Source: Sedimentisphaerales bacterium
GTDB taxonomy: Bacteria; Planctomycetota; Phycisphaerae; Sedimentisphaerales; Anaerobacaceae
Direction: 5' to 3'
Length of the DNA: 18,934 nt
Assembly: GCA_046760285.1 (NCBI GenBank)
Contig: JBHIDV010000011.1
Location: forward strand, 1-18,934
Below the pieces are notes generated by a model. The model worked only from the letters and a program-made list of their open reading frames with translations. It searched no databases and was not told where the DNA came from. Shown here piece after piece: positions 557 through 18,091 of this stretch. A program made the translations under genes and the position numbers. Numbering within the stretch: position 1 is the stretch's first letter; each line of letters opens with the position of its first letter.

Positions 557-1903
557 GTGGGAGTTCTAAGACTTCTAAGCCCAGCGCTAATACCGGAGAA
601 ACCAGCCACAAGGATACAATGGTTTATTAGACTCCGATGGTTGGCAGCTTCCGGGGTTCTTGTTTTCACAATTGTCGGTCGGTTCCTGCTCCAGCTACAG
701 TTTGAAGTTGCTCCGCTGATATTTGTCTGTATCTGCATAGCTCTATATAACACGGTGTTTTTCATTCTGGCTTATAGAACTCAACCAGAGGGTAAGTGGG
801 GTGAGAAGTTCTCTTTTATACAGGTAGGAACGGACATTTTGGCGCTTACTATTCTTATGCACTTTGGCGGAGGCATTGAAAATCCATTTATTTCCTACTA
901 TTTGTTCCATACAATTATTGCGGCCATTCTGCTGCCATGGTGGAAGGTGGCCTTGCAGGTCCTATTGGCATCGTCTTGTATTGCCGGTTTGGCGATAGCA
1001 GAATTGGTAGGCCTCTTAACTCATCGCCATGTCAGAGGGCTTTTGCCCTTTGAGCTATATGATAACTTCAAGTTTGTGATGGTCACCGTCCTGGCAATCA
1101 TCACCACGCTTTGTATTAGTGCTTTGCTTGCGGCCTCTATATCCCAGAGACTGCACGAAAGGGAAGAGCAACTGTCGGCGGCAAACGAAGACCTCAAAGA
1201 GCAGGACCGCATAAAATCACAATATGTTATGAGGGTAGCACATGACTTGGGCGGACCTGCTGGTACGATCACCAGCTGTCTCAAGTTGGTGACTCTGGGC
1301 CTGACTGGCCCGATCCCTGAAAAAGCCCTGGACATGGTCCAGCGAGCGCAACGTAAGAGCGAATATCTGGGACATCTGATCAGAGACTTGCTCAGCCTTT
1401 CCCGGATCAAGGCCGCGAAAGAAATCCCAAAGACCGCAGTCGAATTGCCGAAAATAATCAATCAAGTGTTCGAGGCATTACAGCCACAGGTAACGGACAA
1501 GAGCCTGGTTCTGGAGCAAAAACTTCCTGCTGCCTTGCCAGCAGTTTACGGCAATGCAGAAGCAATCTACGAGCTTTTCGATAACCTCGTGACAAACGCT
1601 GTCAAATACACGCCAATAGGCGGACGAGTGGAACTGGCCGTGTCGAATACGGGCGATAAAGTTCTGGTTAAGATACAAGACAATGGTGTCGGGATTCCCG
1701 CAGAAGCAGTCCCGCACATCTTCGAGGAGTTTTACCGTGCTGATAATGTTAAGGCCGAGGGTATGGAAGGGACTGGACTGGGGCTGGCGATCGTCAAACA
1801 GATTCTCCATGCGCACGAGGCAAAGTTCTGGGTTGAAAGCGAGCAAGGCAGTGGGACCACGTTTTCATTTACTCTACCGATAATGAGAAAATCGTATGTA
1901 TAG
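557..1903 (+). CDS. Sensor histidine kinase with polytopic membrane N-terminus
   Basis: GTG start after AGGAAAG. The first ~190 aa contain five or six hydrophobic helices. An H-box-like MRVAHDLGGP follows a coiled-coil stretch. The C-terminal HATPase_c domain has an N box (LVTNAVKYT), G1 (DNGVGIP) and G2 (GTGLGLAIV). The stop codon overlaps the next start (ATGTATAG). Confidence 0.85.
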   Translation: MGVLRLLSPALIPEKPATRIQWFIRLRWLAASGVLVFTIVGRFLLQLQFEVAPLIFVCICIALYNTVFFILAYRTQPEGKWGEKFSFIQVGTDILALTILMHFGGGIENPFISYYLFHTIIAAILLPWWKVALQVLLASSCIAGLAIAELVGLLTHRHVRGLLPFELYDNFKFVMVTVLAIITTLCISALLAASISQRLHEREEQLSAANEDLKEQDRIKSQYVMRVAHDLGGPAGTITSCLKLVTLGLTGPIPEKALDMVQRAQRKSEYLGHLIRDLLSLSRIKAAKEIPKTAVELPKIINQVFEALQPQVTDKSLVLEQKLPAALPAVYGNAEAIYELFDNLVTNAVKYTPIGGRVELAVSNTGDKVLVKIQDNGVGIPAEAVPHIFEEFYRADNVKAEGMEGTGLGLAIVKQILHAHEAKFWVESEQGSGTTFSFTLPIMRKSYV

Positions 1904-2948
1904 TGAGAAAAAGATTCAACTGAATGCCCCTGCAGGCAACCTGCCATCCTTCATTGCGGCGGTAGATGCCGGCGCCGATCTGGTGTATATGGGATTCAGG
2001 TCACCAACAAATCTGCGAAATTTGCCCGGCCTGAATTTTTCTGTCGAACAAGCTCAAAAAGCAGTACAATATGCCCACCAACACGGAAGGGGCGTCCATG
2101 TTACCGTGAACACTTATCCTACCGATACCCAACTCAAAGAGTGTTTCCGAGCTGTTGATTACGCTCATGACATTGGCGCCGATGCCGTGATAGCGGCAGA
2201 CTGGGCGGTGCTGGACTATACTCGAAACAGATATCCAGATATGGAGATTCATCTTAGCTGTGTCGCTGGGGTAGCCGATCCTGCTGCCATTCATTTCTAC
2301 CGTAAAGAATTTGGTATAAACTGTGTTGTACTTCCCAGAGTCCTTTGCCTTGAACAAATAGCTGCTCTGCGTAGGCAAACGGATGTGCTCCTGGAGGTAA
2401 TGGTCTTCGGTGTTTTATGTGCCAATTATGACGGTAGGTGTTGTCTGTCGTCTTTCATCACCGGAGCCAGCGCACACAGTATCGGCGCCTGTGCGCCAGC
2501 AGAATTTGTGCAGTTCAAAGAAACTGAGGAAGGTCGCCTAAGTCTGAAGCTCAATGGCATCGTCATCAACAGCTTTGCCGCCACGGAAAAGCATACGTAT
2601 CCAACGCCATGCAAAGGAAAGTATTATAATCCTGCTGTGGGTCGCTGGCTGCACGCTTTTCAGGACCCTTGTTGCCTCAACGCTTTGTCCGTCTTGGGCA
2701 AACTCGCAGCAGCCGGCGTAGACATAGTGAAAATTGAAGGCAGGCAAAGGTCGCTGGCATACATTCAGTTAGTTACAAGCGCCTGGCGCGAGGCGATCGA
2801 TTCACTCAGTCAACGAGAAAACTTTGACCCCCAGAAACATAAGGGACCCCAGCCGAAAAAGATGTCGGCTGGGAGCCCTAAAAATATGTCGCTGGACTCT
2901 ATCCTGGAGGGGACGGCAGGCTCGCTTGGAGCACTTGGTAGAGGTTAG
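1896..2948 (+). CDS. Peptidase U32 family protein, UbiU-like O2-independent hydroxylase subunit
   Basis: The N-terminus IQLNAPAGNLPSFIAAVDAGADLVYMG matches the hallmark ELLAPAGN...DAVY start of U32 proteins. Four Cys residues spaced C-x6-C-x16-C-x39-C match, from memory, the 4Fe-4S ligands C169/C176/C193/C232 of E. coli UbiU. The C-terminal tail carries an in-frame 36-nt palindromic element (2843-2878). Confidence 0.8.
   Translation: MYSEKKIQLNAPAGNLPSFIAAVDAGADLVYMGFRSPTNLRNLPGLNFSVEQAQKAVQYAHQHGRGVHVTVNTYPTDTQLKECFRAVDYAHDIGADAVIAADWAVLDYTRNRYPDMEIHLSCVAGVADPAAIHFYRKEFGINCVVLPRVLCLEQIAALRRQTDVLLEVMVFGVLCANYDGRCCLSSFITGASAHSIGACAPAEFVQFKETEEGRLSLKLNGIVINSFAATEKHTYPTPCKGKYYNPAVGRWLHAFQDPCCLNALSVLGKLAAAGVDIVKIEGRQRSLAYIQLVTSAWREAIDSLSQRENFDPQKHKGPQPKKMSAGSPKNMSLDSILEGTAGSLGALGRG
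2843..2878. repeat. 36-nt GC-rich palindromic element, copy A, inside the UbiU-like CDS
   Basis: GGGACCCCAGCCG-aaaaagatgt-CGGCTGGGAGCCC with complementary arms, flanked by TAA on both sides. It encodes GPQPKKMSAGSP in frame. Confidence 0.85.
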
Positions 2949-2951
2949 AAT

Positions 2952-4385
2952 ATGAAAATATCTGTTGGGCCTGCCCCGTCACATTGGGGTAGGGAAAGAA
3001 TTGAAAGTTTCTATCGTGAGCTGTGCCAAAGTCCCGTGGATTATGTGTATCTCGGAGAGATTGCTTGTCCAGAGCGTTCATGCTTTACACCTGATTTTTT
3101 TAATAGGCTCTGCGATGAGCTTTCACAGGCGGGCAAAAAGGTGTACGCATCCTCGTTAATCCTCGTTAGAGATGAGAAGCAATATCGTGCCTTTGAAGAG
3201 ATGGCACAACGATTACAGCGTGTAGAGATCAATAGCCCTGCGTTTCTGGGCCTCGCCCGGCGCTGGCCTTGCGTGACCGGCACGTTTCTTAACGTATATA
3301 ACTCAGCCGCTGTGAATATTCTGGCAAAACATATGGTTGAAAGGATAGTATTATCTCCTGAACTTAGCTTTCAATCAATCACCTCCATTACCAAGAGGTG
3401 CACAGTGGCCACGGAGCTTATAGTCCACGGATACGTACCAATTGCGATGTCCGGCACTTGCCAGACGGCACGCTCACTCGGACAGAATGGCCACGGATGT
3501 GGAAAGTCCTGTCAGTGTTATCCCGAAGGAATGGTATTAATGGCAGGTGACCGGTCTCTGTTTCGTATTGAGGGACCACAGACACTCTCAGCCGCAATCT
3601 ATTGCCTGGTAGAGTATCTGCCGTGGTTGGAAAAGGCAGGCATCGATACAATACGCATACTGCCTCAGTGGAATCATACTGGTCGTATTGTGAATATCTA
3701 TCGGGATGTGTTGCATAATCGCAGAGATTGTCGAGATGCCGTAGAAGAGCTAAAAGCAATTACGCCGGTGGAACTCTGCAATGGTTGGCTCTTAGGCAAA
3801 GCTGGGTGGCTTTATGAATCACCAGACAGAACTCAGAAGTCAGAAGACAGAAATCAGAAAACAGAAGTCAGAAATCAGAAGTCAGAAGTCCGTCTTCTGT
3901 CGTCTGTCTTCTGTCGTCTGTCTTCTGTCGTTTGTCCTCTGCCATCTGTCCTCTGTCGTCTGTCCTCTGTTGTCTCTTCGAAGGATTGTCGCCGTGCTTG
4001 GTCTACTAATGACATCATTCGTGAGGTGAATCAGCTTTTAGAGGTAATGCATGATGACCCCCAATTCATCAAGAAGATTGCTGGGTTTAAAGGGGTGGTG
4101 GTTGTGCTTAGTGCCTCAGATACTGGACGAGAGTTCATAATCGAATTAAATAAGCAAGGCGTGCGGGTCCGACCCTATAGCGGCCAGCCCTTCGATGTCA
4201 ATATTCAAGCTACTGAACAGGTTCTTTGGGCGGTCCTCTCAGGTCAGATGGATGCAGACACAGCGTTCTTTAGCGGTAAGGTCCGCATTTGTGGCTCCAT
4301 AGCCACAGCATTTCGTGTTAAAAACAGTTTTCTAAGCCTCCTTCAAAGGCATCTGAGTCAAACCATGAAAGCTAACACAAGTTAG
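2952..4385 (+). CDS. U32 family UbiV-like protein fused to a C-terminal SCP2 (UbiT-like) lipid-binding domain
   Basis: The N-terminus MKISVGP...VDYVYLGEIACPERS parallels E. coli YhbV/UbiV (MKYSLGP...VIYLGEAVCSKRR). The Cys cluster C-x12-C-x3-C (SGTCQTARSLGQNGHGCGKSCQC) plus the N-terminal Cys matches the UbiV 4Fe-4S ligand pattern. The last ~120 aa (VVVVLSASDTGREFIIEL...FFSGKVRICGSIATAFRV) look like an SCP2 sterol-carrier fold. The two parts are joined by a repeat-encoded low-complexity linker. Confidence 0.8.
   Translation: MKISVGPAPSHWGRERIESFYRELCQSPVDYVYLGEIACPERSCFTPDFFNRLCDELSQAGKKVYASSLILVRDEKQYRAFEEMAQRLQRVEINSPAFLGLARRWPCVTGTFLNVYNSAAVNILAKHMVERIVLSPELSFQSITSITKRCTVATELIVHGYVPIAMSGTCQTARSLGQNGHGCGKSCQCYPEGMVLMAGDRSLFRIEGPQTLSAAIYCLVEYLPWLEKAGIDTIRILPQWNHTGRIVNIYRDVLHNRRDCRDAVEELKAITPVELCNGWLLGKAGWLYESPDRTQKSEDRNQKTEVRNQKSEVRLLSSVFCRLSSVVCPLPSVLCRLSSVVSSKDCRRAWSTNDIIREVNQLLEVMHDDPQFIKKIAGFKGVVVVLSASDTGREFIIELNKQGVRVRPYSGQPFDVNIQATEQVLWAVLSGQMDADTAFFSGKVRICGSIATAFRVKNSFLSLLQRHLSQTMKANTS
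3823..3977. repeat. Heptamer tandem array (CAGAAGT-like, ~10 units) followed by its inverted complement (GTCTTCT-like, ~12 units): a long imperfect hairpin inside the CDS
   Basis: Direct reading gives cagacag aactcag aagtcag aagacag aaatcag aaaacag aagtcag aaatcag aagtcag aagtc, then c gtcttct gtcgtct gtcttct gtcgtct gtcttct gtcgttt gtcctct gccatct gtcctct gtcgtct gtcctct gttgtct. The symmetry centre is at ~3890/3891. Confidence 0.9.
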
Positions 4386-4423
4386 CTAATAGAATCAACT
4401 CTTAACATATAAAGGAGACCGAT

Positions 4424-5158
4424 ATGAAAAAAAATAAAAAAACTAATGCTGTACAGTATAGCACAGCGCGCAGGGGCCCATTTGGACGGCGTAAAATGCT
4501 GAAAGTCGGCGCTTTAGGTGCGTTGGCTGGTTACACTGGCACAGCGAAAGCCCTGGCCAGCAGCAAATCCACTATTAAACAAAAACGCTATGCCATGGTG
4601 ATTGATTTGCGAAGGTGTATTGGCTGCCATGCCTGCTCGGTAGCCTGCAAATCGGAGTTTAGCGTGCCTCTGGGGGTATGGAGGTCCTGGGTCAAGCAGG
4701 CCGAACGCGGCAAGTTTCCGAACACTCAGCGTCATTTCCTGCCGCGTCTATGCAACCACTGTGAGTACCCCACGTGCGTAGAGGCCTGCCCGACCAAGGC
4801 GTCGTACCAGCGGGACGATGGAATTGTTCTGGTCCGCGAAGAGCGATGTATCGGTTGTAGGCTATGTGTTTCAGCCTGTCCGTACAATGCACGCTTCTTT
4901 CACCCAGATGAGAAGATTGCTAACAAGTGTACTTTTTGTGTGCATCGTGTGGACCAGGGCCTGGTCCCCGCGTGCGTCAACACATGCCAGGGCAGAGCAC
5001 GTATTTTCGGTGACCTGAATGACCCAACGAGTGAGGTCGCTAAGCTCGTCGCCAGAGAACCTGTCCAGGTACTCAAACCAAAACTCGGAACTGAGCCCCG
5101 CGTTTTTTATATCGCCTCAGATACAGGGCTGATGGGGCGCATTAGAAAGGAGATCTGA
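4424..5158 (+). CDS. Four-cluster 4Fe-4S ferredoxin-type electron-transfer subunit of a molybdopterin oxidoreductase (TtrB/PsrB/PhsB-like) with Tat signal
   Basis: Strong SD AAAGGAGA. A twin-arginine motif GRRKMLKVGALGALA precedes an AxA cleavage site. There are four ferredoxin Cys clusters: CIGCHACSVAC, CNHCEYPTCVEACP, CIGCRLCVSACP and CTFC...C...C. Confidence 0.85.
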   Translation: MKKNKKTNAVQYSTARRGPFGRRKMLKVGALGALAGYTGTAKALASSKSTIKQKRYAMVIDLRRCIGCHACSVACKSEFSVPLGVWRSWVKQAERGKFPNTQRHFLPRLCNHCEYPTCVEACPTKASYQRDDGIVLVREERCIGCRLCVSACPYNARFFHPDEKIANKCTFCVHRVDQGLVPACVNTCQGRARIFGDLNDPTSEVAKLVAREPVQVLKPKLGTEPRVFYIASDTGLMGRIRKEI

Positions 5159-5159
5159 A

Positions 5160-6023
5160 ATGGAACAAGTAATCTATTACAATATCCACCACCATGAGGC
5201 AATGGGTCCACTAATTGTTCTGTACTTTTTCCTGAGTGGTTTAGGGGCGGGTGCTTTTCTGACGGCGGTGGGCTTGCAAATTTTCGGCAGCGAAAAGTAC
5301 GAAAAAATCGCCAGAACTGCTGCCATTGCCGCACCTGTCATGCTTATTCCGGGGCTGCTATGCCTTCTTTTGGACCTGGGTAAGCCTTTGCGGTTTCTCA
5401 ACCTGTTTTTTTACTTCAATCCCTCCAGCGTTGCTTCTTGGGGGGTGTGGATAATAAATATCTTCTTGGTGATTTCTGTGCTCTACGCATTTTCGCACGT
5501 GATAGGCAAAGCCCAAAGAGCAAAGCCGTTAGCCTATCTGGGCCTCGTTTTTGCCTTGGCAGTAGGGTTTTACTCTGGCCTGCTCTTGTACCAGATGCAC
5601 GGCTATGTTCTATGGCACTCGGCGCTGCTGCCGATGCTCTTTTTAGTCTCCGCTATTGCCTCTGGGCTTGCGGTGGTGCTGCTTCTCTCGGGCTCGGCTG
5701 AGCCTGACCAAACTCGTGTACTTTCCAAAGTTCTCGCTGTCGTGGTCGGTATAGATTTGGTACTGGCTTTGACTGAGGTGCTGACCCTGGCGGTCAGTAG
5801 TGGTGAAAAAGCAGAAATCGCCAATGTCATTCTGTCAGGTGGCTATGGCTTTTTGTTCATCGTGGTATACATAATTGCTGGTTTGGCCCTACCACTGTTC
5901 GTGTTGGTACAGCGGCAGGTGACCCGTAATGTTCAAGTGGGTGCTTGCGTTCTGGTTTTGGTGGGAACTCTGGCCATGCGTTATGTAATTGTGGTGGGCG
6001 GACAAGCTCTGCCGTTAAGTTAA
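5160..6023 (+). CDS. NrfD/PsrC-family integral membrane quinol-interacting anchor subunit
   Basis: Strong SD AAAGGAGAT, starting 1 nt after the previous stop. The protein is highly hydrophobic with ~8 predicted helices, and its length and N-terminus resemble PsrC/NrfD. Confidence 0.8.
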   Translation: MEQVIYYNIHHHEAMGPLIVLYFFLSGLGAGAFLTAVGLQIFGSEKYEKIARTAAIAAPVMLIPGLLCLLLDLGKPLRFLNLFFYFNPSSVASWGVWIINIFLVISVLYAFSHVIGKAQRAKPLAYLGLVFALAVGFYSGLLLYQMHGYVLWHSALLPMLFLVSAIASGLAVVLLLSGSAEPDQTRVLSKVLAVVVGIDLVLALTEVLTLAVSSGEKAEIANVILSGGYGFLFIVVYIIAGLALPLFVLVQRQVTRNVQVGACVLVLVGTLAMRYVIVVGGQALPLS

Positions 6024-6038
6024 TCAGCCGATTGGTAA

Positions 6039-6074
6039 GGGTTCCCAGCGGCAATACATCGCCGCTGGGGTCCC
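6039..6074. repeat. 36-nt GC-rich palindromic element, copy B, intergenic and in inverted orientation
   Basis: GGGTTCCCAGCGGC-aatacatc-GCCGCTGGGGTCCC flanked by TAA/TAA. It lies between the NrfD-like stop and the catalytic-subunit RBS. Confidence 0.85.
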
Positions 6075-6093
6075 TAATGAAAGGGAAAGAACC

Positions 6094-8631
6094 ATGTCAA
6101 ATATAACACGACGTGATTTCTTAAAGCTGGGCACGGCCAGCTCAACTCTCGCTGCTGCCGGGCTGGGTGCGGGAGCTACCCTTGCTGGCAGTATCAAGCT
6201 GACTGAAGGGGGTAGGAACTTTTCGGTCCGAACTGGTAAACAGCTAAAAGCCATCCCCTCGGCTTGCTGGCAATGCGTGACTCGTGATGGGATTATTGGA
6301 TACGTGGAAGATGGACGCCTGGTCAAAATCGAGGGCAATCCTAAGCTGCCTCGCACCAATGGCAAGCTTTGCTCCCGTGGCCAAGCTGGAACCAATATAC
6401 TTTACAACCCAGACCGTCTCCTCCATCCTTACAAACGTGTGGGTAAGCGTGGAGAGGGAAAATGGCAGCAAATATCGTGGGAGCAGGCCCTGGACCTGCT
6501 CGTCAACGGAGGCGAGATAGCCGGGCATAAGGTTAAAGGTCTGAAAACCCTTCTCGACGAGGGACACCCCGAAAAATTCATGTTCCACTATGGCCGGATG
6601 AAGGGCAGCGATAGCAAAATCATCAAAGACTACTTTCTGGCCGCATACGGCACTGGGACCGTTGGTAACCACACAGGCATTTGCGAGTCTGCCAAATGGA
6701 CGGCTCACGAGCTTACCTGGGGCAGCCACTATGACAACTGGGATTTTGAGAATACAAAGTTTATCCTGAACTTTGGAAGCAATGTTTTAGAGTGCCATAC
6801 CAATCATGTGCCTGAAGCACAGCGGTGCATCGACGCGATGGCAAAAGGTGTCCCCATGTACACTTTCGATGTGCGTCTGTCCAACACAGCAGCCAAGTCT
6901 ACGGAGTGGATTCCTATCAAGCCTGGCACGGACCTTGCGGTTGTCCTTGCTATGTGCAACGTCCTTCTGCAGAACGGCATTTGTGACAAGCAGTTCATCG
7001 AGACTTATACAAACGTAACTTGTGACGAACTAAAGAGCCATCTGGCGCAGTACACACCGCAGTGGGCCGAGCAGATTAGCGGTGTGCCGGCTGAGAAGAT
7101 CCGTACTATCGCCCTTGCTTATGGTCGAACGAAGCCGAGCGTATGTATCAGCTATCGTGGCGCCGTCATGCACTACAACGGTGTCCAAACGGAGCGGGCG
7201 ATACTTATGCTCGAGGCAATCGCCGGCAATATCGACTGTCCCGGCGGCCGCTGTCGGGCCGTGGGTGCAAAGTGGAAGTTTACCTTTGCCAAACCTACGA
7301 CGAAGGCCAAGAAGCTGCATATCCTTGATGGCGAAGAAGGCGCCTATGCGTATCCGACACACCACACCTCGCACCAAGTTTTCCATATGATCAACAAGGG
7401 CCCGGAACGTCCCGAAATCTACATGATATATTGTTACAACCCTATTTATGTCAATGGTGAGATACAGGCTAATATCGACCTTATGAAGGACGAGCAGAAG
7501 ATGCCTTTCATCGTGGCTGTTGATGTAGCGATCTCGGAAAGTGCGGAACTCGCTGACCTTCTGCTTCCTGACGCAACGTATCTGGAGCGCTGGACTGCTG
7601 ACGATATGGTCTGTCCGAGTCAAGTCCCTGAGTATTATATACGCCAACCACTGGTCAAGCCTTTAGGTGAGGCACGTAACTTTTGCGACGTGGTCTGTGA
7701 CATTGCCAAGCGACTCGGTCTGGACCTTGGATTCAACTCGGCGGAGGAGTTCGTCAGGAACGGCTGTGAGAACACCCCAGGTGTGAAGGAAGCAGGTGGA
7801 TTTGAGTACATGAAGAAGCACGGCGCCTGGTACGATAAGAGTGCCAAGCCGGCCTATTTCAGCCACACCAAAGAGGTGGATGTGACCGGAGCTACCCTGG
7901 ACGAGGCCACAGGGGTTTACTACAAGAAGCAGCCTGAAGACACAGACTATTCTTCACTCGATAGCAAACACGCCGCCGCCCAGTACGTCGCCCAGCGATG
8001 TGGCGACGGAGTTGCGCGAAAGGGTTTCCCACCCGACAAGCACAGATGGAAAACAGGTCTCTTTGAGATCCGCTCGAAAGCGCTCGCTGATAAAAGCTTC
8101 GATGCATTGCCCTCATGGATGCCCATCCCCGAACATGAAAAGATGGGGCCGGATGATTTGATCCTGACCACCTTCAAGGTCAATGTTCAGACCCACTCGC
8201 GCAGTCAGAACTGCAAGTGGCTCACAGAAATATTTCACGAAAATCCAGCGTGGATCCATCCGGCCACGGCAATGGCACGAGGCATCAAAGATGGAGATAT
8301 GATAAAAGTGATCTCGGCGATTGGTGAGATCACTACCAAGGCCAATGTGACTGAAGGTGTTGTTCCCGGAGTTGTAGCGATCTCAAACCACATGGGACAC
8401 TGGGCGTATGGCGGTTACGCCTCCGGTAAGTCATGCCAGGAACTCTTTAGCCACGAATGTGAGATCGACTGCCACCACAAGTGGTGGGGCAAGAATGCCA
8501 AAGACCGAGGTACCAAGGTATGGCGCGACGGAAGGGGCGTACACGTGAACTGGATAATTCCCAACGTTGGTGATCCTATTGGAGGCGCACAACGATGGAT
8601 GGATACAGTTGTGCGGGTGACTAAGGTGTGA
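6094..8631 (+). CDS. Molybdopterin (Mo/W-bisPGD) oxidoreductase catalytic subunit with Tat signal (TtrA/PsrA/SrdA-like)
   Basis: Twin-arginine motif TRRDFLKLG. The N-terminal Fe-S (FS0) motif C58-x2-C61-x3-D65-x27-C93 follows. The 845-aa length fits the DMSO reductase superfamily. The gene lies directly downstream of the ferredoxin and NrfD subunits. Confidence 0.9.
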   Translation: MSNITRRDFLKLGTASSTLAAAGLGAGATLAGSIKLTEGGRNFSVRTGKQLKAIPSACWQCVTRDGIIGYVEDGRLVKIEGNPKLPRTNGKLCSRGQAGTNILYNPDRLLHPYKRVGKRGEGKWQQISWEQALDLLVNGGEIAGHKVKGLKTLLDEGHPEKFMFHYGRMKGSDSKIIKDYFLAAYGTGTVGNHTGICESAKWTAHELTWGSHYDNWDFENTKFILNFGSNVLECHTNHVPEAQRCIDAMAKGVPMYTFDVRLSNTAAKSTEWIPIKPGTDLAVVLAMCNVLLQNGICDKQFIETYTNVTCDELKSHLAQYTPQWAEQISGVPAEKIRTIALAYGRTKPSVCISYRGAVMHYNGVQTERAILMLEAIAGNIDCPGGRCRAVGAKWKFTFAKPTTKAKKLHILDGEEGAYAYPTHHTSHQVFHMINKGPERPEIYMIYCYNPIYVNGEIQANIDLMKDEQKMPFIVAVDVAISESAELADLLLPDATYLERWTADDMVCPSQVPEYYIRQPLVKPLGEARNFCDVVCDIAKRLGLDLGFNSAEEFVRNGCENTPGVKEAGGFEYMKKHGAWYDKSAKPAYFSHTKEVDVTGATLDEATGVYYKKQPEDTDYSSLDSKHAAAQYVAQRCGDGVARKGFPPDKHRWKTGLFEIRSKALADKSFDALPSWMPIPEHEKMGPDDLILTTFKVNVQTHSRSQNCKWLTEIFHENPAWIHPATAMARGIKDGDMIKVISAIGEITTKANVTEGVVPGVVAISNHMGHWAYGGYASGKSCQELFSHECEIDCHHKWWGKNAKDRGTKVWRDGRGVHVNWIIPNVGDPIGGAQRWMDTVVRVTKV

Positions 8632-9524
8632 AAAGACAAAGCCAGAAAAACCCTTTAGGTTGGCCAGCGGTTAGAGAGCAGTGGCGTGAGCAGGCCATCA
8701 GCCGCAGTAATTGCTATGGTCTCTTGGCGCTTGTATTCCGAGGGCCACCGACTCGCGATGTTGTTGAGCGGCTCAGGACCCCATCATTGGCCCAGGCCCT
8801 CAACTACTTAGGATACGACGTCACACAGGAGCTCGCTGGCGAGCTTGAAGCATTGACGGAGCGCCTCCGCCAGCAATATACACGTATCTTTAGTGGTCCA
8901 GGGCCCCACGTCTCCCTCTATGCTTCGGTACACTATGCTAAGGGACCCCAGCCGCAAAAAATGGCGGCTGGGAGCCCTAATGAGGGGCGGTTCTGGGGTG
9001 ATTCTACTGTGTGGGTGAAACACTTTATCGAAACGACAGGACTTTCCTTCACAGGTAACTGGGACAGCATACCCGACCACATAGCAATCGAGCTTGAACT
9101 GATGCAACGGCTTACTGCCTACGAGGCTCAGCTATGGGCAAGCTTACCGGAACAATCGCATAATAAGAACAACATGGGCAAGCAAATCTGCCAATGTCTT
9201 CAGACACAAGAGCAGTTCCTCCGTGACCATCTGTGTTTATGGATTCCTCGATTCTGTAAGTGTGTATTAGAGACATCCACCGGTACTTTTTACCAGAAAA
9301 TGACGAAACTAACGAAGTTTCTCGTCCTCTCTGACGTTGAAAATGTAGTGGCTGCTCAAAGCATACTATCTGACTCATCTACAAAACGTCGACAACGCAA
9401 CGGTCTGTCCCAGCAGGAACCTAATATGGTAGGGACCCCGCTCCGCGGGAACCCAGCCAAGCCATTGGGTTCCCAGCCGCCATTTTTCGCGGCTGGGGTC
9501 CCATTCCAGGAGGAAAAGACATGA
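8628..9524 (+). CDS. TorD/DmsD/NarJ-family redox-enzyme maturation chaperone-like protein, with repeat-derived insertions and C-terminal extension
   Basis: GTG start overlapping the upstream stop (GTGA). Family motifs YTRIFSGPGPHVSLYASVH and IPDHIAIELELM are present. The gene contains palindromic element copy C in frame and ends with a ~70-aa tail encoded by the nested palindrome D. Confidence 0.6.
   Translation: MKRQSQKNPLGWPAVREQWREQAISRSNCYGLLALVFRGPPTRDVVERLRTPSLAQALNYLGYDVTQELAGELEALTERLRQQYTRIFSGPGPHVSLYASVHYAKGPQPQKMAAGSPNEGRFWGDSTVWVKHFIETTGLSFTGNWDSIPDHIAIELELMQRLTAYEAQLWASLPEQSHNKNNMGKQICQCLQTQEQFLRDHLCLWIPRFCKCVLETSTGTFYQKMTKLTKFLVLSDVENVVAAQSILSDSSTKRRQRNGLSQQEPNMVGTPLRGNPAKPLGSQPPFFAAGVPFQEEKT
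8942..8977. repeat. 36-nt GC-rich palindromic element, copy C, inside the TorD-like CDS
   Basis: GGGACCCCAGCCG-caaaaaatgg-CGGCTGGGAGCCC flanked by TAA/TAA. It encodes GPQPQKMAAGSP in frame. Confidence 0.85.
9432..9502. repeat. Nested palindromic element D (short palindrome D1 9432-9454 plus 36-nt copy D2 9467-9502) immediately upstream of the receiver gene RBS
   Basis: D1 is GGGACCCCGC-tcc-GCGGGAACCC. D2 is GGGTTCCCAGCCGC-catttttc-GCGGCTGGGGTCCC. The outer arms 9432-9439 and 9495-9502 and the inner arms 9447-9454 and 9467-9474 are complementary. D2 is flanked by ATT/ATT. Confidence 0.8.
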
Positions 9525-9985
9525 GCAGTCAACCAAAGAAGGTGCTTGTGGTAGATGATGACCAGAGTGCTATAGCGTTCGTGAAGGCTGCGCTCGAGCC
9601 AGAGAAGTACACCGTTATAGGCGCAGGTGACGGACTGGCCGGGCTGGAGCAAGCTCGCCAGGAACCTCCCGACCTTATCATACTTGATGTGTACATGCCT
9701 CGTCAGCCAGGATTTTACACGCTACGGGATATAAAAAACGACCCTAAAACTAAAGATATCCCTGTCATCATGCTTACTGGGGTCGGGGAGCGACTGGGCA
9801 TTACATTTTCTACGCAGGACATCTACGACTTCCTTGGGATTGAGCCTGATGTCTACCTCGAAAAACCGGTTGACCCGCTGTTCTTACGCAGGGTAGCAGA
9901 CAGACTCTCAGGAATAAATTCTGCTGCCAACGGCCGCGCAACCCCAAAGGACGTAAAAGATGGCAACAGCAAGCAACATTCTTAA
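9521..9985 (+). CDS. Stand-alone response regulator receiver (CheY-like REC) protein
   Basis: Strong SD AGGAGGA. It has the acidic pocket VLVVDDD, the phospho-acceptor Asp in IILDVYMP and no output domain (154 aa). Confidence 0.85.
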   Translation: MSSQPKKVLVVDDDQSAIAFVKAALEPEKYTVIGAGDGLAGLEQARQEPPDLIILDVYMPRQPGFYTLRDIKNDPKTKDIPVIMLTGVGERLGITFSTQDIYDFLGIEPDVYLEKPVDPLFLRRVADRLSGINSAANGRATPKDVKDGNSKQHS

Positions 9986-11051
9986 GTGGGCTGGACAACT
10001 CAACTGCAATATACCGTTGTTACATACGAAGATGGCGCAAGCTGCCTGTCGAAAACTGGCGGCGGATAAGAGTCCTCAAGCGGTGCCTTTCTTGGTGTCG
10101 GCCCTTGCCCACAACGATGAACAGGTAAGAATGATTGCTGAGAATGGGCTCAAATCACTGAGTGACCCGCAGGCCATCGATGCTCTTCTATTGGGTTATG
10201 TTTTTACCAAACAAGAGTCTGTCCGCAGAATCCTCACAGCCCTTGGACGTAAAGTGACAGAGGCTGCTGAGCTGCCCGCCCCGTCGTCCGAGTCTGCACC
10301 CGCAACTGCAGTGCAAGCATGGCAATTTCGCAACGATAAGGATGGGTCAATTTTAGCCTTTGTGCCAGAGGGAGACTTCCTGGCCGGTAAGGATAACTTC
10401 TCTGTGCATCTGCGGCCATATTACCTGGCTCTTACGTGTGTGACTAATGCCCAGTATGCACGGTTTCTGACGGAGCGAAGACCAAATTCGGCAAAACTAA
10501 CCAGTTGGATTAATCTCCGGCAGGCCTCGGCTGCTATTCAAAAAGAAGGGCACGCATATCAGGTGGACCCCGAAAAGGCAGAGTTACCGGTCATATGGGT
10601 TACCTGGGAGGGTGCAGCGGCATACTGCAAATGGGCTGGCTTACGGCTGCCCAGCGAACTGGAATGGGAGAAGGGTGCAAGAGGAGTTGACGGAAGGCTG
10701 TATCCGTGGGGCGATGAGTGGGAGGCAGGAAGACCCATGCTATCGGCAGGAGAGCGAAAACCGGAGGAAATAAGTAGTGTTTGGGCACACCCAGCCGCCC
10801 GCAGTCCATACGGACTTTATCAAATGATCGGAAACGTCTACGAGTGGTGCGCCGACCCGTACGAAGAAAATGTATATCAGCGTTATTCACAAGGCGACCT
10901 GAGGCCGCCACTCCAAGGAGAGCACAGGGTGTTGCGAGGCGGACCTTGGCGTTTTGGCACCCCCGCCCATTTGAGGACGGAATATCGCAAGGGTACTGTC
11001 TGGCGCGCCGGTACATTTCTCTGCGGTTTTAGATGTGCCAAGTCTCTGTGA
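9960..11051 (+). CDS. HEAT-repeat plus FGE-sulfatase (formylglycine-generating-enzyme-like, SUMF1/EgtB fold) domain protein
   Basis: N-terminal PBS-lyase-type HEAT repeats (AVPFLVSALAHNDEQVRMIAENGL). C-terminal FGE-family signatures WEGAAAYCKWAG, GNVYEWCADPY and RGGPWRF. The 9960 start overlaps the REC gene by 26 nt, so a later start is possible. Confidence 0.75.
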   Translation: MATASNILKWAGQLNCNIPLLHTKMAQAACRKLAADKSPQAVPFLVSALAHNDEQVRMIAENGLKSLSDPQAIDALLLGYVFTKQESVRRILTALGRKVTEAAELPAPSSESAPATAVQAWQFRNDKDGSILAFVPEGDFLAGKDNFSVHLRPYYLALTCVTNAQYARFLTERRPNSAKLTSWINLRQASAAIQKEGHAYQVDPEKAELPVIWVTWEGAAAYCKWAGLRLPSELEWEKGARGVDGRLYPWGDEWEAGRPMLSAGERKPEEISSVWAHPAARSPYGLYQMIGNVYEWCADPYEENVYQRYSQGDLRPPLQGEHRVLRGGPWRFGTPAHLRTEYRKGTVWRAGTFLCGFRCAKSL

Positions 11052-11082
11052 TGTTTCGACAAAGGCGAAATGAGCAGAAGCG

Positions 11083-12258
11083 ATGTTGCTGTTTGACAAA
11101 GCTCTGAGGATTGTTCTAAAATCCGCTCGCTTCACCGGCACCGAACGTGTTGACATTGCTCATGCGGTGAATCGGATATTGGCGGAGGATGTCAAATCGG
11201 ACATTGACATGCCTCCTTTCAATAAAGCAGCCATGGATGGCTACGCTTGTCGCAGAGAAGACCTTGCCAAGGAACTAACCGTAATAGAAACAATTCCTGC
11301 AGGTGTGTCCCCCAAGCGAACAATCGGGGCGAATCAATGCGCTAAAATCATGACTGGTAGTGTGGTGCCGGTCGGTGCCAACTGTGTGATTATGAAAGAG
11401 TATGCAGAAACTCGGACGAAGAACACTGTTTCTTTTGTCGGCGAAAAGACCGCCGACAACATTTGCCCAAAAGGTGAAGACATCAAGGCTGGTGATGTTG
11501 TCTTGCACAAGGGTACCTTGTTACGTCCACAGCACATTGCGGTTCTCGCATGTGTGGGCAGCGCCCGGCCAATGGTGGCGAAAAGGCCAAAGGTGGGGAT
11601 ATTCGCAACGGGTAATGAGCTGATTGAGCCAGCATCCCAGCCTGGACCATCCCAGATAAGAAACAGCAACAGCTTTCAGCTTGCCGCGCAGGTTGAAAGT
11701 ATAGGTGCGGTTGTAAGAAATTACGGTATTGCCAAAGACACCCACCAGGCTATTGACAATATGTTCAAAAAAGTTGCTGAAGAAAATCACGTTGTCATCG
11801 TCTCTGGCGGTGTTTCGGTAGGTGAATTCGACATTTTACCGACAATTCTTAGGCAAAACAATGTCGAGTTATTGTTCGAGAATATCGCCTTAAAGCCGGG
11901 AAAACCTACGGTCTTTGGCATATCGGAAAAGGCCTATTGTTTCGGCCTGCCCGGAAACCCCGTAGCATCCTTTGTATTATTCGAACTGATGGTTAAACCA
12001 TTTCTTTATAAGCTGATGGGCCATGATTACGCACCGCCTGATATTCAGATGCCTCTTGGAGAATCTATCAAGCTCAAGAAAGTGAAAAGGCAAAGTTGGG
12101 TCCCAGTTGCAATAACAGGGGTAGGCACATTAAAGCCGGTTGAATATCATGGGTCGGCGCACATCGGTGCTTTGTGTAAGGCGGATGGCTTGGTCAGTGT
12201 CGATGTTGGTGTGGCAGAAATTGCAGCGCCAACGGTGGTTCGAGTCAGGCTGATTTGA
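11083..12258 (+). CDS. moeA: Molybdopterin molybdotransferase MoeA
   Basis: The ~390-aa length, N-terminal L.F.EAL-like start and PFNKAAMDGYA motif fit the MoeA/gephyrin-E family. The gene is adjacent to moaA. Confidence 0.88.
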   Translation: MLLFDKALRIVLKSARFTGTERVDIAHAVNRILAEDVKSDIDMPPFNKAAMDGYACRREDLAKELTVIETIPAGVSPKRTIGANQCAKIMTGSVVPVGANCVIMKEYAETRTKNTVSFVGEKTADNICPKGEDIKAGDVVLHKGTLLRPQHIAVLACVGSARPMVAKRPKVGIFATGNELIEPASQPGPSQIRNSNSFQLAAQVESIGAVVRNYGIAKDTHQAIDNMFKKVAEENHVVIVSGGVSVGEFDILPTILRQNNVELLFENIALKPGKPTVFGISEKAYCFGLPGNPVASFVLFELMVKPFLYKLMGHDYAPPDIQMPLGESIKLKKVKRQSWVPVAITGVGTLKPVEYHGSAHIGALCKADGLVSVDVGVAEIAAPTVVRVRLI

Positions 12259-12288
12259 ACGTCAAGCAGCTCTGGTGGTTTGCAGGTC

Positions 12289-13245
12289 ATGCATGTGGAT
12301 GTTGATTATTTGAGAATTTCTGTTACCGACAGATGCAATCTACGGTGTATTTACTGTAATCCTTTAGGCCGTTGCGATTTTATAGAACATAAAGAGATTT
12401 TAAGATTTGAAGAGATATACCGTATTGTCAGACTTTTTGTCGAATGCGGCATCAGAAAGGTTAGGCTTACCGGAGGTGAGCCATTGGTCAGAAGAAATAT
12501 TGTTCAGTTGGTCCAAACACTGGCAGCGATACCACTTGATGATCTGGCGCTTACAACTAATGGAGTGCTTCTGGAACGAATGGCAGAAGAGCTCAAAGCC
12601 GCGGGGCTGAAACGCGTTAACATAAGTGTTGACTCTGCAGAGAGGGAAAGTTACAGACAGATTACCGGCTTTGACTTGTTGCCAAAGGTAACCAAAGGCA
12701 TTTATAAGGCCATAAAAGTTGGTCTCATGCCTGTCAAGACCAACAGCGTCATAATAAGAGACATCAATGTTTGCCAGATATTATCGCTTGCACAGATGAG
12801 TATTTATTTGCCGGTCATGGTCAGATTCATTGAATATTGCCCAGCCTGCAAGCATACGAAGCCAGCGAAATACTATGTACCTAACAGTGAAGTCCGCGAA
12901 ATTATTGAACGCAAATTCGGACCACTTTCAAACCTTTTGGCAGGCGGTACGAATGGTCCAGCTCTTTATTTCAAGATTAGAAATTCAGCCGGGGCCATAG
13001 GTTTCATAAACGGTAGATCTTCGGTATTTTGCCATTCGTGTAATCGGCTTCGGCTGACCAGCGACGGAAAACTCAAACCCTGCCTGTACTCAGCTCACCA
13101 CTATGACTTAAAAAAACTCATCAGAAGCGATGCTACTGACGGACAGATACTGGCTTTGCTAAAAAAAATAATTGCAGAAAAGTCCAGGTTCACAAAGCTG
13201 AATTCGTTTAGAGACGAATTCTCTATGCGCAAAGTTGGAGGTTGA
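12289..13245 (+). CDS. moaA: GTP 3',8-cyclase MoaA (radical SAM)
   Basis: YLRISVTDRCNLRCIYC radical-SAM CxxxCxxC motif and the C-terminal second cluster FCHSCNRLRLTSDGKLKPC are present. The ATG at 12289 follows GGTGG; the ORF track extends the frame to TTG at 12280. Confidence 0.88.
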   Translation: MHVDVDYLRISVTDRCNLRCIYCNPLGRCDFIEHKEILRFEEIYRIVRLFVECGIRKVRLTGGEPLVRRNIVQLVQTLAAIPLDDLALTTNGVLLERMAEELKAAGLKRVNISVDSAERESYRQITGFDLLPKVTKGIYKAIKVGLMPVKTNSVIIRDINVCQILSLAQMSIYLPVMVRFIEYCPACKHTKPAKYYVPNSEVREIIERKFGPLSNLLAGGTNGPALYFKIRNSAGAIGFINGRSSVFCHSCNRLRLTSDGKLKPCLYSAHHYDLKKLIRSDATDGQILALLKKIIAEKSRFTKLNSFRDEFSMRKVGG

Positions 13246-16229: not shown

Positions 16230-16291
16230 TGCAACTACCTCCTTTCTAAACGAGGCCACTTACTATTTCAATATCTATATGGATGTGCTCA

Positions 16292-17707: not shown

Positions 17708-17722
17708 ATTTATTTACCTCTT

Positions 17723-18064
17723 TTATCCGATGGCCTTGCTGCCTCGCTCTCCGGTTCTTATCCTTATGCACTCAGGCAAATCTAAGATAAAGATTTTGCC
17801 ATCGCCGATTTGTCCTGTCCATGCGCCTTTGATAATGGCATCTATGGTCGGTTCAACAAAGTCTTCATTCACCGCGATTTCAAGTCTTACCTTCTTCAGT
17901 AAGTTCACTTCCTCTCTTACTCCTCGGTAGGTTTCGGTATAGCCCTTCTGCTCCCCACATCCTACAGCATTGGTAACTGTCATCTTATAGACCTGTGCGT
18001 CATAAAGAGTTTTTTTGACATCAGGCAATTTGTGAGGCTGAATCATTGCGATTATGAGTTTCAT
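17723..18064 (-). CDS. glnK: Nitrogen regulatory protein P-II (GlnK/GlnB)
   Basis: The 113-aa protein has a T-loop [12 protein letters not shown] and sits directly downstream of amtB. SD AGGATGA. Confidence 0.88.
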
Positions 18065-18091
18065 TTTCTCATCCTTTTACCGAAGTTCAAA

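Follow-up and report, generated by a model that had tools for sequence, protein, structure and literature searches.

A UbiU-type U32 subunit (gene 1) and a UbiV-type U32 subunit that carries a UbiT-like SCP2 lipid-binding domain in the same reading frame (gene 2) are encoded side by side in a Sedimentisphaerales metagenome-assembled genome, within the 18,934-nt stretch of DNA analyzed here as a whole (the window; Table 1). The two proteins would each supply one subunit of a [4Fe-4S] hydroxylase of the UbiU/UbiV type that works without oxygen, and the most likely function predicted for them is O2-independent hydroxylation of a prenylated quinone-like lipid for a respiratory enzyme encoded in the same gene string. 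As an explanation of the whole, a fused U/V-SCP2 hydroxylase tailoring the quinone pool of this co-encoded branch is put forward with moderate confidence, and the interpretation offered by the initial annotation was partly supported.

Table 1. Features of the window, with the evidence for each.
Feature	Position	Strand	Evidence
Class I SAM methyltransferase, C-terminal part, cut by contig end	12..458	+	Pfam Methyltransf_11, weak Ubie_methyltran match
Histidine kinase, PilS-like 6-TM domain	557..1903	+	Pfam, spacing, conserved synteny
UbiU-type U32 subunit (gene 1)	1896..2948	+	350 aa; Pfam, NCBIfam, E. coli UbiU alignment, tree
Palindromic repeat element, 42 nt, in frame within gene 1	2840..2881	+	Repeat counts, homologue alignment
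UbiV-type U32 domain, gene 2 aa 1-291	2952..3824	+	NCBIfam, E. coli UbiV alignment, pLDDT, tree
Disordered linker, gene 2 aa ~292-351	3825..4004	+	TRF, repeat finder, RNA fold, pLDDT
SCP2 lipid-binding domain, UbiT-like, gene 2 C-terminus, aa ~352-474	4005..4385	+	Pfam, NCBIfam, PDB, Foldseek
4x[4Fe-4S] subunit, PsrB/TtrB/DsrO-like, own Tat-like N-terminus	4424..5158	+	Pfam, NCBIfam, N-terminal sequence
NrfD/PsrC-type membrane quinol-interacting subunit	5160..6023	+	Pfam NrfD 156 bits
Tat-exported Mo-bisPGD catalytic subunit, Psr/Phs/Arr branch	6094..8631	+	Pfam, NCBIfam, PDB, RRDFLK motif
TorD/NarJ-type chaperone	8628..9524	+	Pfam, repeat copies, alignment
Response-regulator receiver, FGE-sulfatase/HEAT protein, MoeA, MoaA (tail of the string)	9521..13245	+	Pfam, NCBIfam

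Both open reading frames (1896-2948, 350 aa; 2952-4385, 477 aa) were borne out as first described; they are spaced by 3 nt, and the first 8 nt of gene 1 are shared with the end of the kinase gene upstream. Gene 1 matched Pfam Peptidase_U32 with 166 bits and E. coli K-12 UbiU with 45% identity (E 1e-96), and gene 2 matched U32 with 77 bits, SCP2 with 45 bits over aa 360-458, and E. coli UbiV with 28% identity (E 3e-31). The conserved Fe-S cysteine spacing proposed initially also held: Cys175, Cys182, Cys199 and Cys239 of gene 1 (C-x6-C-x16-C-x39-C; x6/x16/x38 in E. coli UbiU, PMC6747719) align with UbiU C169, C176, C193 and C232, and Cys39, Cys170, Cys183 and Cys187 of gene 2 (C-xn-C-x12-C-x3-C) align with UbiV C39, C180, C193 and C197, all eight E. 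coli residues being proven ligands. Their invariance, in a 10-sequence alignment including E. coli UbiU for gene 1 and among 50 homologues for gene 2, together with these alignments points to both sets as candidate [4Fe-4S] ligands. AlphaFold gave the U32 domain of gene 2 a pLDDT of mostly 86-98, falling to 60-77 at aa ~161-220 around the Cys motif. The SCP2 fold previously suggested for the C-terminus was recovered by structure prediction (pLDDT 75-91 over residues 352-474); the best PDB matches of this part in Foldseek were SCP2 proteins and UbiJ-SCP2, with TM 0.63-0.78 on the target, and phmmer aligned residues 351-460 with rabbit SCP2 1c44 (E 2.5e-8).

The in-frame V-SCP2 fusion is real. 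Approximately 36 clusters (90% identity) of fused homologues, spanning 390-477 aa with the shortest looking truncated, were found in NCBI, ENA, JGI and Logan, and the architecture is no artefact because these independent protein clusters share it. The fused forms constitute essentially one clade, and unfused relatives have, at the same place, V and a separate, overlapping 169-aa SCP2 gene. Four fused and four unfused loci, all from contigs other than the window's, were aligned; the fused ones (L002, L004, L005 and L009) differ by a 4-nt deletion that takes out the stop codon, missing exactly TGAC/TGAT at the end of V, and this deletion is likely to be the origin of the fusion.

In the window's copy, the linker, with a pLDDT below 50 at residues 282-347, derives from repeats that can form a hairpin, a feature missed by the initial annotation. 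TRF and a repeat finder resolved nt 3827-3890 as (CAGAAGT)x9 and nt 3888-3975 as (GTCTGTC)x12.6, and the two arrays are opposed, which makes a long hairpin possible (RNA fold -62.1 kcal/mol, z = -5.9). As nt 3824-3975 consist of 7-nt tandem repeats, the in-frame state of this copy hangs on the repeat count, and one heptamer unit more or fewer ends the protein at approximately aa 355. An artefact of assembly or a frameshift, already raised as a possibility in the initial annotation, would leave the real genome with separate V and SCP2 genes or with a truncated V; approximately 150 nt of such repeats in two inverted arrays is error-prone in short-read assembly, and a single contig is the only known source of the exact gene 2 protein. 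However, this is highly unlikely, since the closest relatives (66-69% identity) are all fused and free of any repeat, the linker of relatives being approximately 15 aa shorter, unconserved and repeat-free, the fused clade is coherent with a clean deletion to explain its origin, and the arrays are degenerate (77-84% matches, arms 73% complementary), unlike a chimeric fold-back.

A separate observation, likewise absent from the initial annotation, concerns the 42-nt palindromic element within gene 1, an in-frame insertion that adds 'GPQPKKMSAGSPK', residues that no relative has; every homologue, even one that is 77% identical, shows a 13-aa gap opposite the insert. The window holds four copies of this element (0 expected by chance), two of which lie in the chaperone gene (8939-8980 and 9467-9502), and in the chaperone alignment a 13-aa insert and a C-terminal extension were found solely in the window's copy.

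With regard to family placement, UbiU, UbiV and UbiT were the best-scoring NCBIfam models of the three modules, each below its equivalog cut-off (372.8 bits vs 440 for gene 1, 222.1 vs 275 for gene 2 and 42.9 vs 46.9 for its SCP2 part). In bootstrapped NJ trees, built on few taxa, gene 1 fell within the UbiU-type group (99%) and gene 2 within the UbiV-type group (100%), both away from TrhP and RlhA, and the window proteins formed their own Planctomycetota clade inside these groups. The earlier designation as UbiU/UbiV orthologues is too strong because all three modules are sub-cut-off and form a separate Planctomycetota clade. Sedimentisphaerales are not among the known ubiquinone-producing lineages, and a literature search on their quinone content yielded nothing. 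It seems quite improbable that the genes are true UbiU, UbiV and UbiT in a host that makes ubiquinone without oxygen, with ubiA, ubiD, ubiX, ubiG and ubiE elsewhere in the genome. Such a reading would accord with a gene 1 product that resembles E. coli UbiU and keeps every ligand, with the top-ranking models, and with the precedent of split loci and a ubiquinone pathway outside Pseudomonadota (bioRxiv 10.1101/2025.09.17.676790; L008), whereas the same cut-offs are passed by validated-class Desulfobacterota UbiV and by the ubiD-linked UbiU/UbiV-UbiT of L014, and a node with 91% bootstrap unites the V subunit with sequences from Spirochaetales and L007, separate from validated UbiV. Moreover, approximately 20 kb around eight related loci contains no further ubi gene (no ubiA, ubiD or ubiG in the relatives' retrieved flanks of up to 10 kb), the adjoining methyltransferase is neither UbiE nor UbiG by score, and, according to a 2025 survey, Desulfobacterota represent the first case outside Pseudomonadota.

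The Pfam family name, Peptidase_U32, and the second rank of TrhP among the NCBIfam matches of gene 1 might suggest a TrhP/RlhA-like RNA hydroxylase or a U32 'collagenase-type' peptidase with an incidental SCP2 domain. This is hardly credible: TrhP scored 148 bits against 373 for UbiU, with a TrhP cut-off of 534, genes 1 and 2 split from TrhP and RlhA at 99-100% bootstrap, no DUF3656 or PrtC C-terminal domain was detected by Pfam, and paired U and V genes with a lipid-binding domain misfit an RNA or protein substrate.

Packing is operon-like across 557 to 13245, with gaps of at most 31 nt, or overlaps, from the response regulator to MoaA. The same 17-18-gene order (HdrA/Flx-like genes, methyltransferase, kinase, U, V(-T), Psr-type molybdoenzyme BCA, chaperone, regulator) recurs in seven Planctomycetota loci at 57-85% identity, and this synteny and the tight gene spacing support the connection in function that the initial annotation drew with the molybdoenzyme downstream. 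The Mo catalytic subunit, 79-85% identical among relatives, scored 374 bits with NCBIfam PhsA (cut-off 694) and matched PsrA (PDB 2vpw) with E 1e-59. The methyltransferase is always upstream of the U32 pair, in the seven Planctomycetota loci, one Spirochaetales locus and L019, and a core of methyltransferase, U, V and SCP2 without the Mo enzyme was found in the Spirochaetales MAG and L019.

Related U32 or U32-SCP2 genes undoubtedly occur in isoprenoid-quinone contexts, including L018 (genuine UbiE/MenG and a long-chain prenyl-diphosphate synthase), L007 (MqnE/C-like, MqnP-like and HemN-like genes), L008 (ubiVKBE-SCP2) and L014 (ubiD). Against the favored explanation stand the sub-cut-off modules, the weak UbiE/MenG likeness of the methyltransferase (59-79 bits for full-length homologues in L002, L011 and L015 vs a MenG/UbiE subfamily cut-off of 158) and the lack of quinone-pathway prenyltransferase, decarboxylase and O-methyltransferase genes in the window and in the relatives' flanks of up to 10 kb; nor does a simple biosynthetic role explain the association with HdrA/Flx-like genes. 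The fused system might instead act on a non-quinone hydrophobe (another isoprenoid or a membrane lipid), or run reductively with the upstream HdrA/Flx-like flavoprotein module as a low-potential electron partner. In every Planctomycetota locus, HdrA-FlpD-Fer4-Fer4_22-FAD/NAD genes come immediately before those for the methyltransferase and the U32 proteins, the Spirochaetales locus has HdrA/Flx-like, methyltransferase and U32 genes spaced by 3 nt or overlapping in the absence of the Mo enzyme, the specificity of the methyltransferase is uncertain, and SCP2 domains bind many lipids. Nevertheless, this alternative appears rather unlikely, as all related loci with interpretable neighbours indicate prenyl-quinone biosynthesis and the methyltransferase is the sole lipid-biosynthesis gene in the island.

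With the E. coli UbiU-UbiV heterodimer and UbiT, which hydroxylate ubiquinone precursors independently of O2 (Pelosi et al. 2019, PMC6747719; Arias-Cartin et al. 2023, PMC10470549), the window shares adjacent U/V genes, a 4+4 pattern of cysteines in which each residue aligns with its counterpart, an accessory module of the SCP2 type, the best-scoring families for the three parts and an association with anaerobic respiration. In E. coli, ubiT is a separate gene, as noted initially, and is divergently transcribed, whereas here T is fused to V, scores are sub-cut-off, the host is an anaerobic planctomycete, other ubi genes are not nearby, and the genes lie inside a Psr-type molybdoenzyme/two-component operon with HdrA/Flx-like genes upstream. 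A ubiT-ubiU gene fusion in Zymomonas mobilis, cited as support for shared function (PMC6747719), similarly attaches an SCP2 carrier covalently to a U32 hydroxylase subunit, but its partner is U in the order T-U, whereas in the window the partner is V and SCP2 is C-terminal; the two arose independently, in separate phyla. Databases contain at least four further lineages with a U32-SCP2 fusion, including a bona fide UbiV-UbiT, and the architecture is therefore recurrent, while no paper describing the V-SCP2 fusion was found in a literature search. The bona fide case, from uncultured L014 (541 aa), has the same V-linker-SCP2 architecture but shares only 27% identity with gene 2; as it passes the cut-offs (UbiU 553, UbiV 373 and UbiT 126 bits), adjoins ubiD and branches with E. 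coli UbiV, it represents an independent fusion in a real ubiquinone pathway. Desulfobacterota class GWC2-55-46 (L008) has UbiTUV genes in a two-locus arrangement that complement E. coli (bioRxiv 10.1101/2025.09.17.676790) and resembles the window in being a UbiUV-type system of anaerobe-rich lineages outside Pseudomonadota with methyltransferase and SCP2 genes in the locus; its V passes the UbiV cut-off (282.7 vs 275) in a ubiV-K-B-E-T locus, whereas the window has no ubiK or ubiB, sub-threshold scores and a separate clade. UbiJ SCP2 (PDB 6h6o/6h6p), one of the closest structures (TM 0.72-0.78 on the target), binds polyprenyl-quinone intermediates; it is 16-18% identical to the window SCP2, serves an O2-dependent pathway and is unfused to a hydroxylase. 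Precedent for a tailored quinone serving a Psr-type reductase exists in Wolinella succinogenes, with 8-methylmenaquinone and polysulfide reductase, although tailoring there is radical-SAM methylation (MqnK/MenK), not U32 hydroxylation, and the genes are outside the psr operon.

Since E. coli UbiUV activity needs UbiT (PMC10470549), a tether between T and V makes functional sense. The 4-nt deletion would have taken the V stop codon and put the overlapping SCP2 gene in frame, thereby extending V at its C-terminus with the accessory protein that presents the lipid, the counterpart of UbiT in E. coli. Riding on a floppy tether of approximately 60 residues, the SCP2 domain may withdraw its hydrophobic substrate, probably a polyprenylated molecule of the quinone type, from the membrane and hand it to the catalytic U/V dimer, and the neighbouring methyltransferase may then alter the hydroxylated product. 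The module would be co-expressed with the quinol-dependent, Psr/Ttr-type periplasmic molybdoenzyme, and its most likely role is to tailor the quinones on which that respiratory branch draws in a strictly anaerobic planctomycete.

The product of gene 1, a U32 protein of the UbiU type (U), shares 45% identity with UbiU of E. coli K-12 (E 1e-96), and residues 1-291 of the gene 2 product, a UbiV-type U32 domain (V), share 28% identity with E. coli UbiV (E 3e-31). The initial annotation had described cysteine spacings that reproduce the Fe-S ligands of the two E. coli proteins, which was borne out by alignment. C175/182/199/239 of gene 1 correspond to C169/176/193/232 of UbiU, the proven [4Fe-4S] ligands in E. 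coli (C-x6-C-x16-C-x38-C; PMC6747719), with a last spacing of x39 in place of x38, and are invariant across 10 aligned UbiU-type sequences. Similarly, C39/170/183/187 of gene 2 correspond to C39/180/193/197 of UbiV, the ligand pattern being defined as C39 plus C-x12-C-x3-C (C180/193/197 in E. coli), and these four residues do not vary among 50 homologues. A PDB sequence search with gene 1 gave no match. In a bootstrapped neighbor-joining (NJ) tree, the UbiU-type clade took in gene 1 (99%) and the UbiV-type group took in gene 2 (100%), and both proteins lay apart from TrhP and RlhA of E. coli, which are U32-family RNA hydroxylases. Membership of the TrhP/RlhA group was judged by equivalog score, C-terminal extension domains, and single-gene arrangement; scores were 148.5 and 31.4 bits (TrhP cut-off 534), the clade is separate, and Pfam detected no DUF3656 domain. 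A role in RNA modification or as a peptidase keeps a small residual probability.

The proposal that these genes are orthologues of UbiU and UbiV was not supported by comparison with curated models. The best NCBIfam equivalog models for the three modules are UbiU, UbiV, and UbiT, and each module scores under its curated cut-off: 372.8 bits vs 440 for UbiU (NF047963), 222.1 vs 275 for UbiV (NF047965), and 42.9 vs 46.9 for UbiT (NF047962, SCP2 part of gene 2). The same cut-offs are passed by UbiV of a Desulfobacterota metagenome-assembled genome (MAG; L008, 282.7 bits) and by all three modules of the ubiD-linked locus L014 (552.7, 372.6, and 126 bits for UbiU, UbiV, and UbiT). The ubiV-K-B-E-SCP2 arrangement of Desulfobacterota has been validated (bioRxiv 10.1101/2025.09.17.676790). 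In the NJ tree, the Planctomycetota U and V sequences form clades of their own (bootstrap 99-100%); V groups with sequences of Spirochaetales and of locus L007 (91%) and not with validated UbiV, and the placement of the U clade relative to bona fide UbiU has a bootstrap of 30%. True UbiUVT orthology was dropped as unsupported by the curated cut-offs, and the gene 1 and gene 2 proteins are not classed as members of the ubiquinone equivalogs; by every sequence criterion testable here, they are predicted to work like UbiU, UbiV, and UbiT. Ubiquinone itself as the product is regarded as improbable; ubiA, B, D, E, G, and X are all absent from the 18.9-kb contig and from the relatives' flanks of up to 10 kb.

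The gene 2 product continues beyond the V domain through a linker into a C-terminal domain that had been annotated as SCP2, and several lines of evidence back this fold. The Pfam SCP2 model passed its threshold at residues 360-458 (45.1 bits vs 21.3), and rabbit SCP2 was matched in a PDB sequence search (E 2.5e-8) by the SCP2 part alone. The AlphaFold model, built with an alignment of 50 sequences as input, comprises a U32 barrel (residues 1-281), confident for the most part and weaker at about 161-220 (pLDDT 60-77), a disordered stretch (282-347, pLDDT <50), and a well-formed alpha/beta domain (352-474); SCP2 proteins including UbiJ-SCP2 were its top PDB structural matches.

The in-frame fusion reported earlier is real, and its origin can be read from related loci. 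In a protein search, fused homologues made up about 36 clusters (54-67% identity; 390-477 aa, of which the shortest are apparently truncated), and about 27 further clusters (285-318 aa) were unfused and end directly past the motif YESPN. A scan of genome contigs yielded just 5 loci. In four of the unfused loci (L006, L011, L012, and L013), the V stop codon is overlapped, in the +1 frame, by a separate 169-aa SCP2 gene. Junction DNA was aligned for four fused and four unfused loci, the window contig being left out because repeats replace its junction. Exactly four bases (TGAC or TGAT) are missing from each of the four fused genes, namely the stop codon plus one base, and this loss removes the V stop and joins the SCP2 frame to the V frame. 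The linker of the fused proteins would therefore be the former N-terminal tail of a stand-alone SCP2 protein, an origin that accounts for its lack of conservation and its predicted disorder. When the U32 domains were placed in an NJ tree, the fused forms fell into essentially one clade within the unfused Planctomycetota forms, with one basal fused pair in addition. The gene 2 protein itself was matched at 100% identity from one contig only; an assembly or frameshift artefact was rejected as the source of the fusion in view of the many independent fused clusters and the clean 4-nt deletion, and is left with a small share of probability. An origin by repeat insertion was also rejected, as the fused relatives carry no repeats.

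In the window, the linker is unlike those of the relatives, a feature missed in the initial annotation, and consists entirely of two opposed heptamer arrays, the second approximately the reverse complement of the first, which are predicted to fold as a long hairpin (-62 kcal/mol, z = -5.9). The tract starts right past the last conserved U32 residue and stops about 8 codons before the first conserved SCP2 residues, and has therefore replaced a pre-existing linker. Because the unit is 7 nt long, gain or loss of one unit would truncate gene 2 at about residue 355, and loss of three units keeps the frame; the unit count is as assembled and confirmable by reads alone. Hypothetically, slippage in this tract might switch the tethered SCP2 carrier on and off, with a single-unit change uncoupling the domain.

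A second repeat likewise missing from that annotation, a 42-nt palindromic element of the structure TAAGGGACCCCAGCCG-N10-CGGCTGGGAGCCCTAA, occurs in four copies in the window, where none is expected by chance. The three copies inside open reading frames all keep the frame, and the element is reminiscent of in-frame palindromic elements known from Rickettsia. It was found in none of 15 loci, all related Planctomycetota loci among them, its exact pattern had 0 matches in the metagenome collection, and the insert of gene 1 is present in no relative. The TorD-like ORF is longer than its counterparts in relatives (222-255 aa); one inserted element accounts for part of the surplus, and the rest is a C-terminal extension of about 45 aa in which the inverted copy lies and which overlaps the receiver gene.

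Features of the window and their coordinates
Feature	Coordinates	Strand	Description
Gene run	557-13245	+	Twelve genes, spacing <=70 nt or overlapping
Gene 1	1896-2948	+	UbiU-type U32 protein, 350 aa
42-nt element, copy 1	2840-2881		In gene 1, in frame, adds GPQPKKMSAGSPK
Gene 2	2952-4385	+	UbiV-type U32 domain, linker, and SCP2 domain, 477 aa
Heptamer arrays, hairpin	3824-3975		In gene 2 linker
Heptamer array 1	3827-3890		Nine copies of CAGAAGT
Heptamer array 2	3888-3975		12.6 copies of GTCTGTC
Molybdoenzyme	4424-8631	+	Psr/Phs/Ttr type
42-nt element, copy 2	6036-6077		Intergenic
TorD-like ORF	8628-9524	+	298 aa
42-nt element, copy 3	8939-8980		Within TorD-like ORF
42-nt element, copy 4	9467-9502		Within TorD-like ORF
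Porin gene	13463-14791		OprO/OprP-type, anion-selective
Nitrogen-assimilation cluster	14949-18886	-	Flotillin/SPFH protein, glutamine synthetase, PII protein, ammonium transporter (cut by contig end)

The window is an entire contig of 18,934 bp from a Sedimentisphaerales (Planctomycetota) MAG. Genes 1 and 2 belong to a tightly spaced gene run, which follows a truncated SAM methyltransferase gene at the contig start and is ordered as histidine kinase, gene 1, gene 2, 4x[4Fe-4S] protein, NrfD-type membrane protein, Mo-bisPGD subunit, TorD-type chaperone, receiver protein, FGE-sulfatase/HEAT protein, MoeA, and MoaA. According to Pfam, NCBIfam, and Tat motifs, the FeS subunit, NrfD membrane subunit, and Tat-exported Mo-bisPGD subunit constitute a Psr/Phs/Ttr-type molybdoenzyme, which reached no substrate-specific equivalog cut-off in NCBIfam; its catalytic subunit is nearest to PsrA/PhsA and ArrA, within the Psr/Phs/Arr branch. 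The gene order is B-C-A and the FeS subunit has a Tat-like leader of its own, an arrangement which we take to be that of ttrBCA and srdBCA, not of psrABC. Directly past the Mo-cofactor genes lies a porin gene, whose product could allow entry of an oxyanion substrate into the periplasm; no such porin was seen in the matching position in relatives with downstream genes listed. The minus-strand genes at the end of the contig form an ordinary nitrogen-assimilation cluster unrelated to the U32-SCP2 finding.

A common gene order at 57-85% identity was observed in 7 related Planctomycetota loci: HdrA-like, FlpD, two FeS proteins, FAD/NAD protein, methyltransferase, kinase, U, and V(-SCP2), followed by PsrB-, PsrC-, and PsrA-like, TorD-like, receiver, and FGE-like genes, the Mo subunit being the most conserved (79-85% identity). 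A Spirochaetales MAG (L015 1-11324) has tightly packed HdrA/Flx-like genes, methyltransferase, U, V, and a separate SCP2 gene and lacks the Mo enzyme, and locus L019 has the methyltransferase, U, and a V-SCP2 fusion alone, implying that the recurrent core is methyltransferase, U, V, and SCP2. The core methyltransferase is distantly UbiE/MenG-like, and its identity as UbiE/MenG was rejected as unsupported (59-79 bits vs the subfamily cut-off of 158). The HdrA-like (~1000 aa)/FlpD/FeS/Fer4_22/FAD-NAD (Flx-like) set, often with FrhB-like genes, was always directly upstream of the core (L015, as well as L002, L005, L009, L011, and L012). It is possible that these genes provide the electron partner of the U32 hydroxylase.

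For other relatives, the neighbouring genes are clearly those of prenyl-quinone metabolism. In an uncultured bacterium (L018 8001-12453), a distant U32-SCP2 fusion of 433 aa precedes a slr0320-like radical SAM gene with B12-binding domain, a genuine UbiE/MenG (230 bits vs cut-off 216), and a long-chain polyprenyl-diphosphate synthase, with no separate UbiU-like gene in view at the locus. In 'bacterium Dive96_bin10.214' (L007 8718-19388), two UbiU-like genes and one UbiV-like gene are interspersed among two MqnE/MqnC-like radical SAM genes, an MqnP-like prenyltransferase, a HemN-like radical SAM gene, an SDR, and an FAD/FeS oxidoreductase, which looks like an undescribed anaerobic quinone pathway employing U32 hydroxylases. 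The L014 locus (7227-11626) combines ubiD with a bona fide ubiU and with an equally bona fide UbiV-UbiT fusion of 541 aa, a type of fusion not mentioned in the literature searched.

On the basis of these observations, U and V would form an O2-independent [4Fe-4S] hydroxylase with a lipid carrier, SCP2, welded onto the V subunit; the substrate would be a polyprenylated quinone-type molecule, and the set would be co-expressed with a Psr/Ttr-type quinol-dependent reductase and would probably supply its quinone pool. Such tailoring of a quinone is the best supported reading, to which we assign about an even chance, the quinone being a putative substrate; against it, the DNA read shows no further gene of a quinone pathway. 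Action on another lipid, or a reductive reaction, is rather unlikely; the conserved HdrA/Flx-like neighbours hint at a different chemistry, or else at an electron partner. UbiUV function in E. coli needs UbiT (PMC10470549), a dependence that makes repeated independent V-T fusions understandable, and a T-U fusion in Zymomonas was likewise taken by Pelosi et al. as a sign of shared function (PMC6747719).

The kind of protein and the idea of a carrier fusion are already known; novelty lies in the lineage, its status as a sister clade, the setting in a respiratory island, and a fusion mechanism that can be demonstrated. Before 2025, UbiU and UbiV were thought to be restricted to ubiquinone-making Pseudomonadota, and the Desulfobacterota pathway was the first outside that phylum according to a 2025 survey, whose supplements hold no entry for Sedimentisphaerales or Phycisphaerae. 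In the literature searched, neither UbiU/V-type genes from Planctomycetota or Spirochaetota nor a V-T fusion had been reported, and there was nothing relevant beyond the cited papers on U32 proteins with menaquinone or on Sedimentisphaerales quinones. Tentatively, and at well under even odds, an undescribed sister family of UbiUVT (methyltransferase, U, V, and SCP2) may occur in strictly anaerobic Planctomycetota (Sedimentisphaerales and other Phycisphaerae), in some Spirochaetota, and in further uncultured bacteria; it would make a new tailored quinone or other redox lipid without O2 and would be wired genetically to an HdrA/Flx-type flavoprotein module and, in planctomycetes, to a dedicated Psr-type reductase as a self-contained respiratory island with a custom electron carrier. 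If so, this would concern lineages thought to have menaquinone at most.

To our knowledge, no enzymes other than UbiU and UbiV are known to hydroxylate quinone rings in the absence of oxygen, and we know of no in-vitro assay or structure of UbiUV so far. The natural V-SCP2 fusion offers a ready-made single-chain construct for both, and the HdrA/Flx-like neighbours suggest candidate electron partners for U32 hydroxylases. The V-SCP2 fusions, independent in several lineages, are genetic evidence for a lipid carrier acting at the V subunit. A coherent U/V/SCP2 set, strongly conserved among anaerobic planctomycetes and spirochaetes and locked here in an operon with a quinol-dependent molybdoenzyme, would extend the range of O2-independent hydroxylation by new phyla and, probably, a new substrate.
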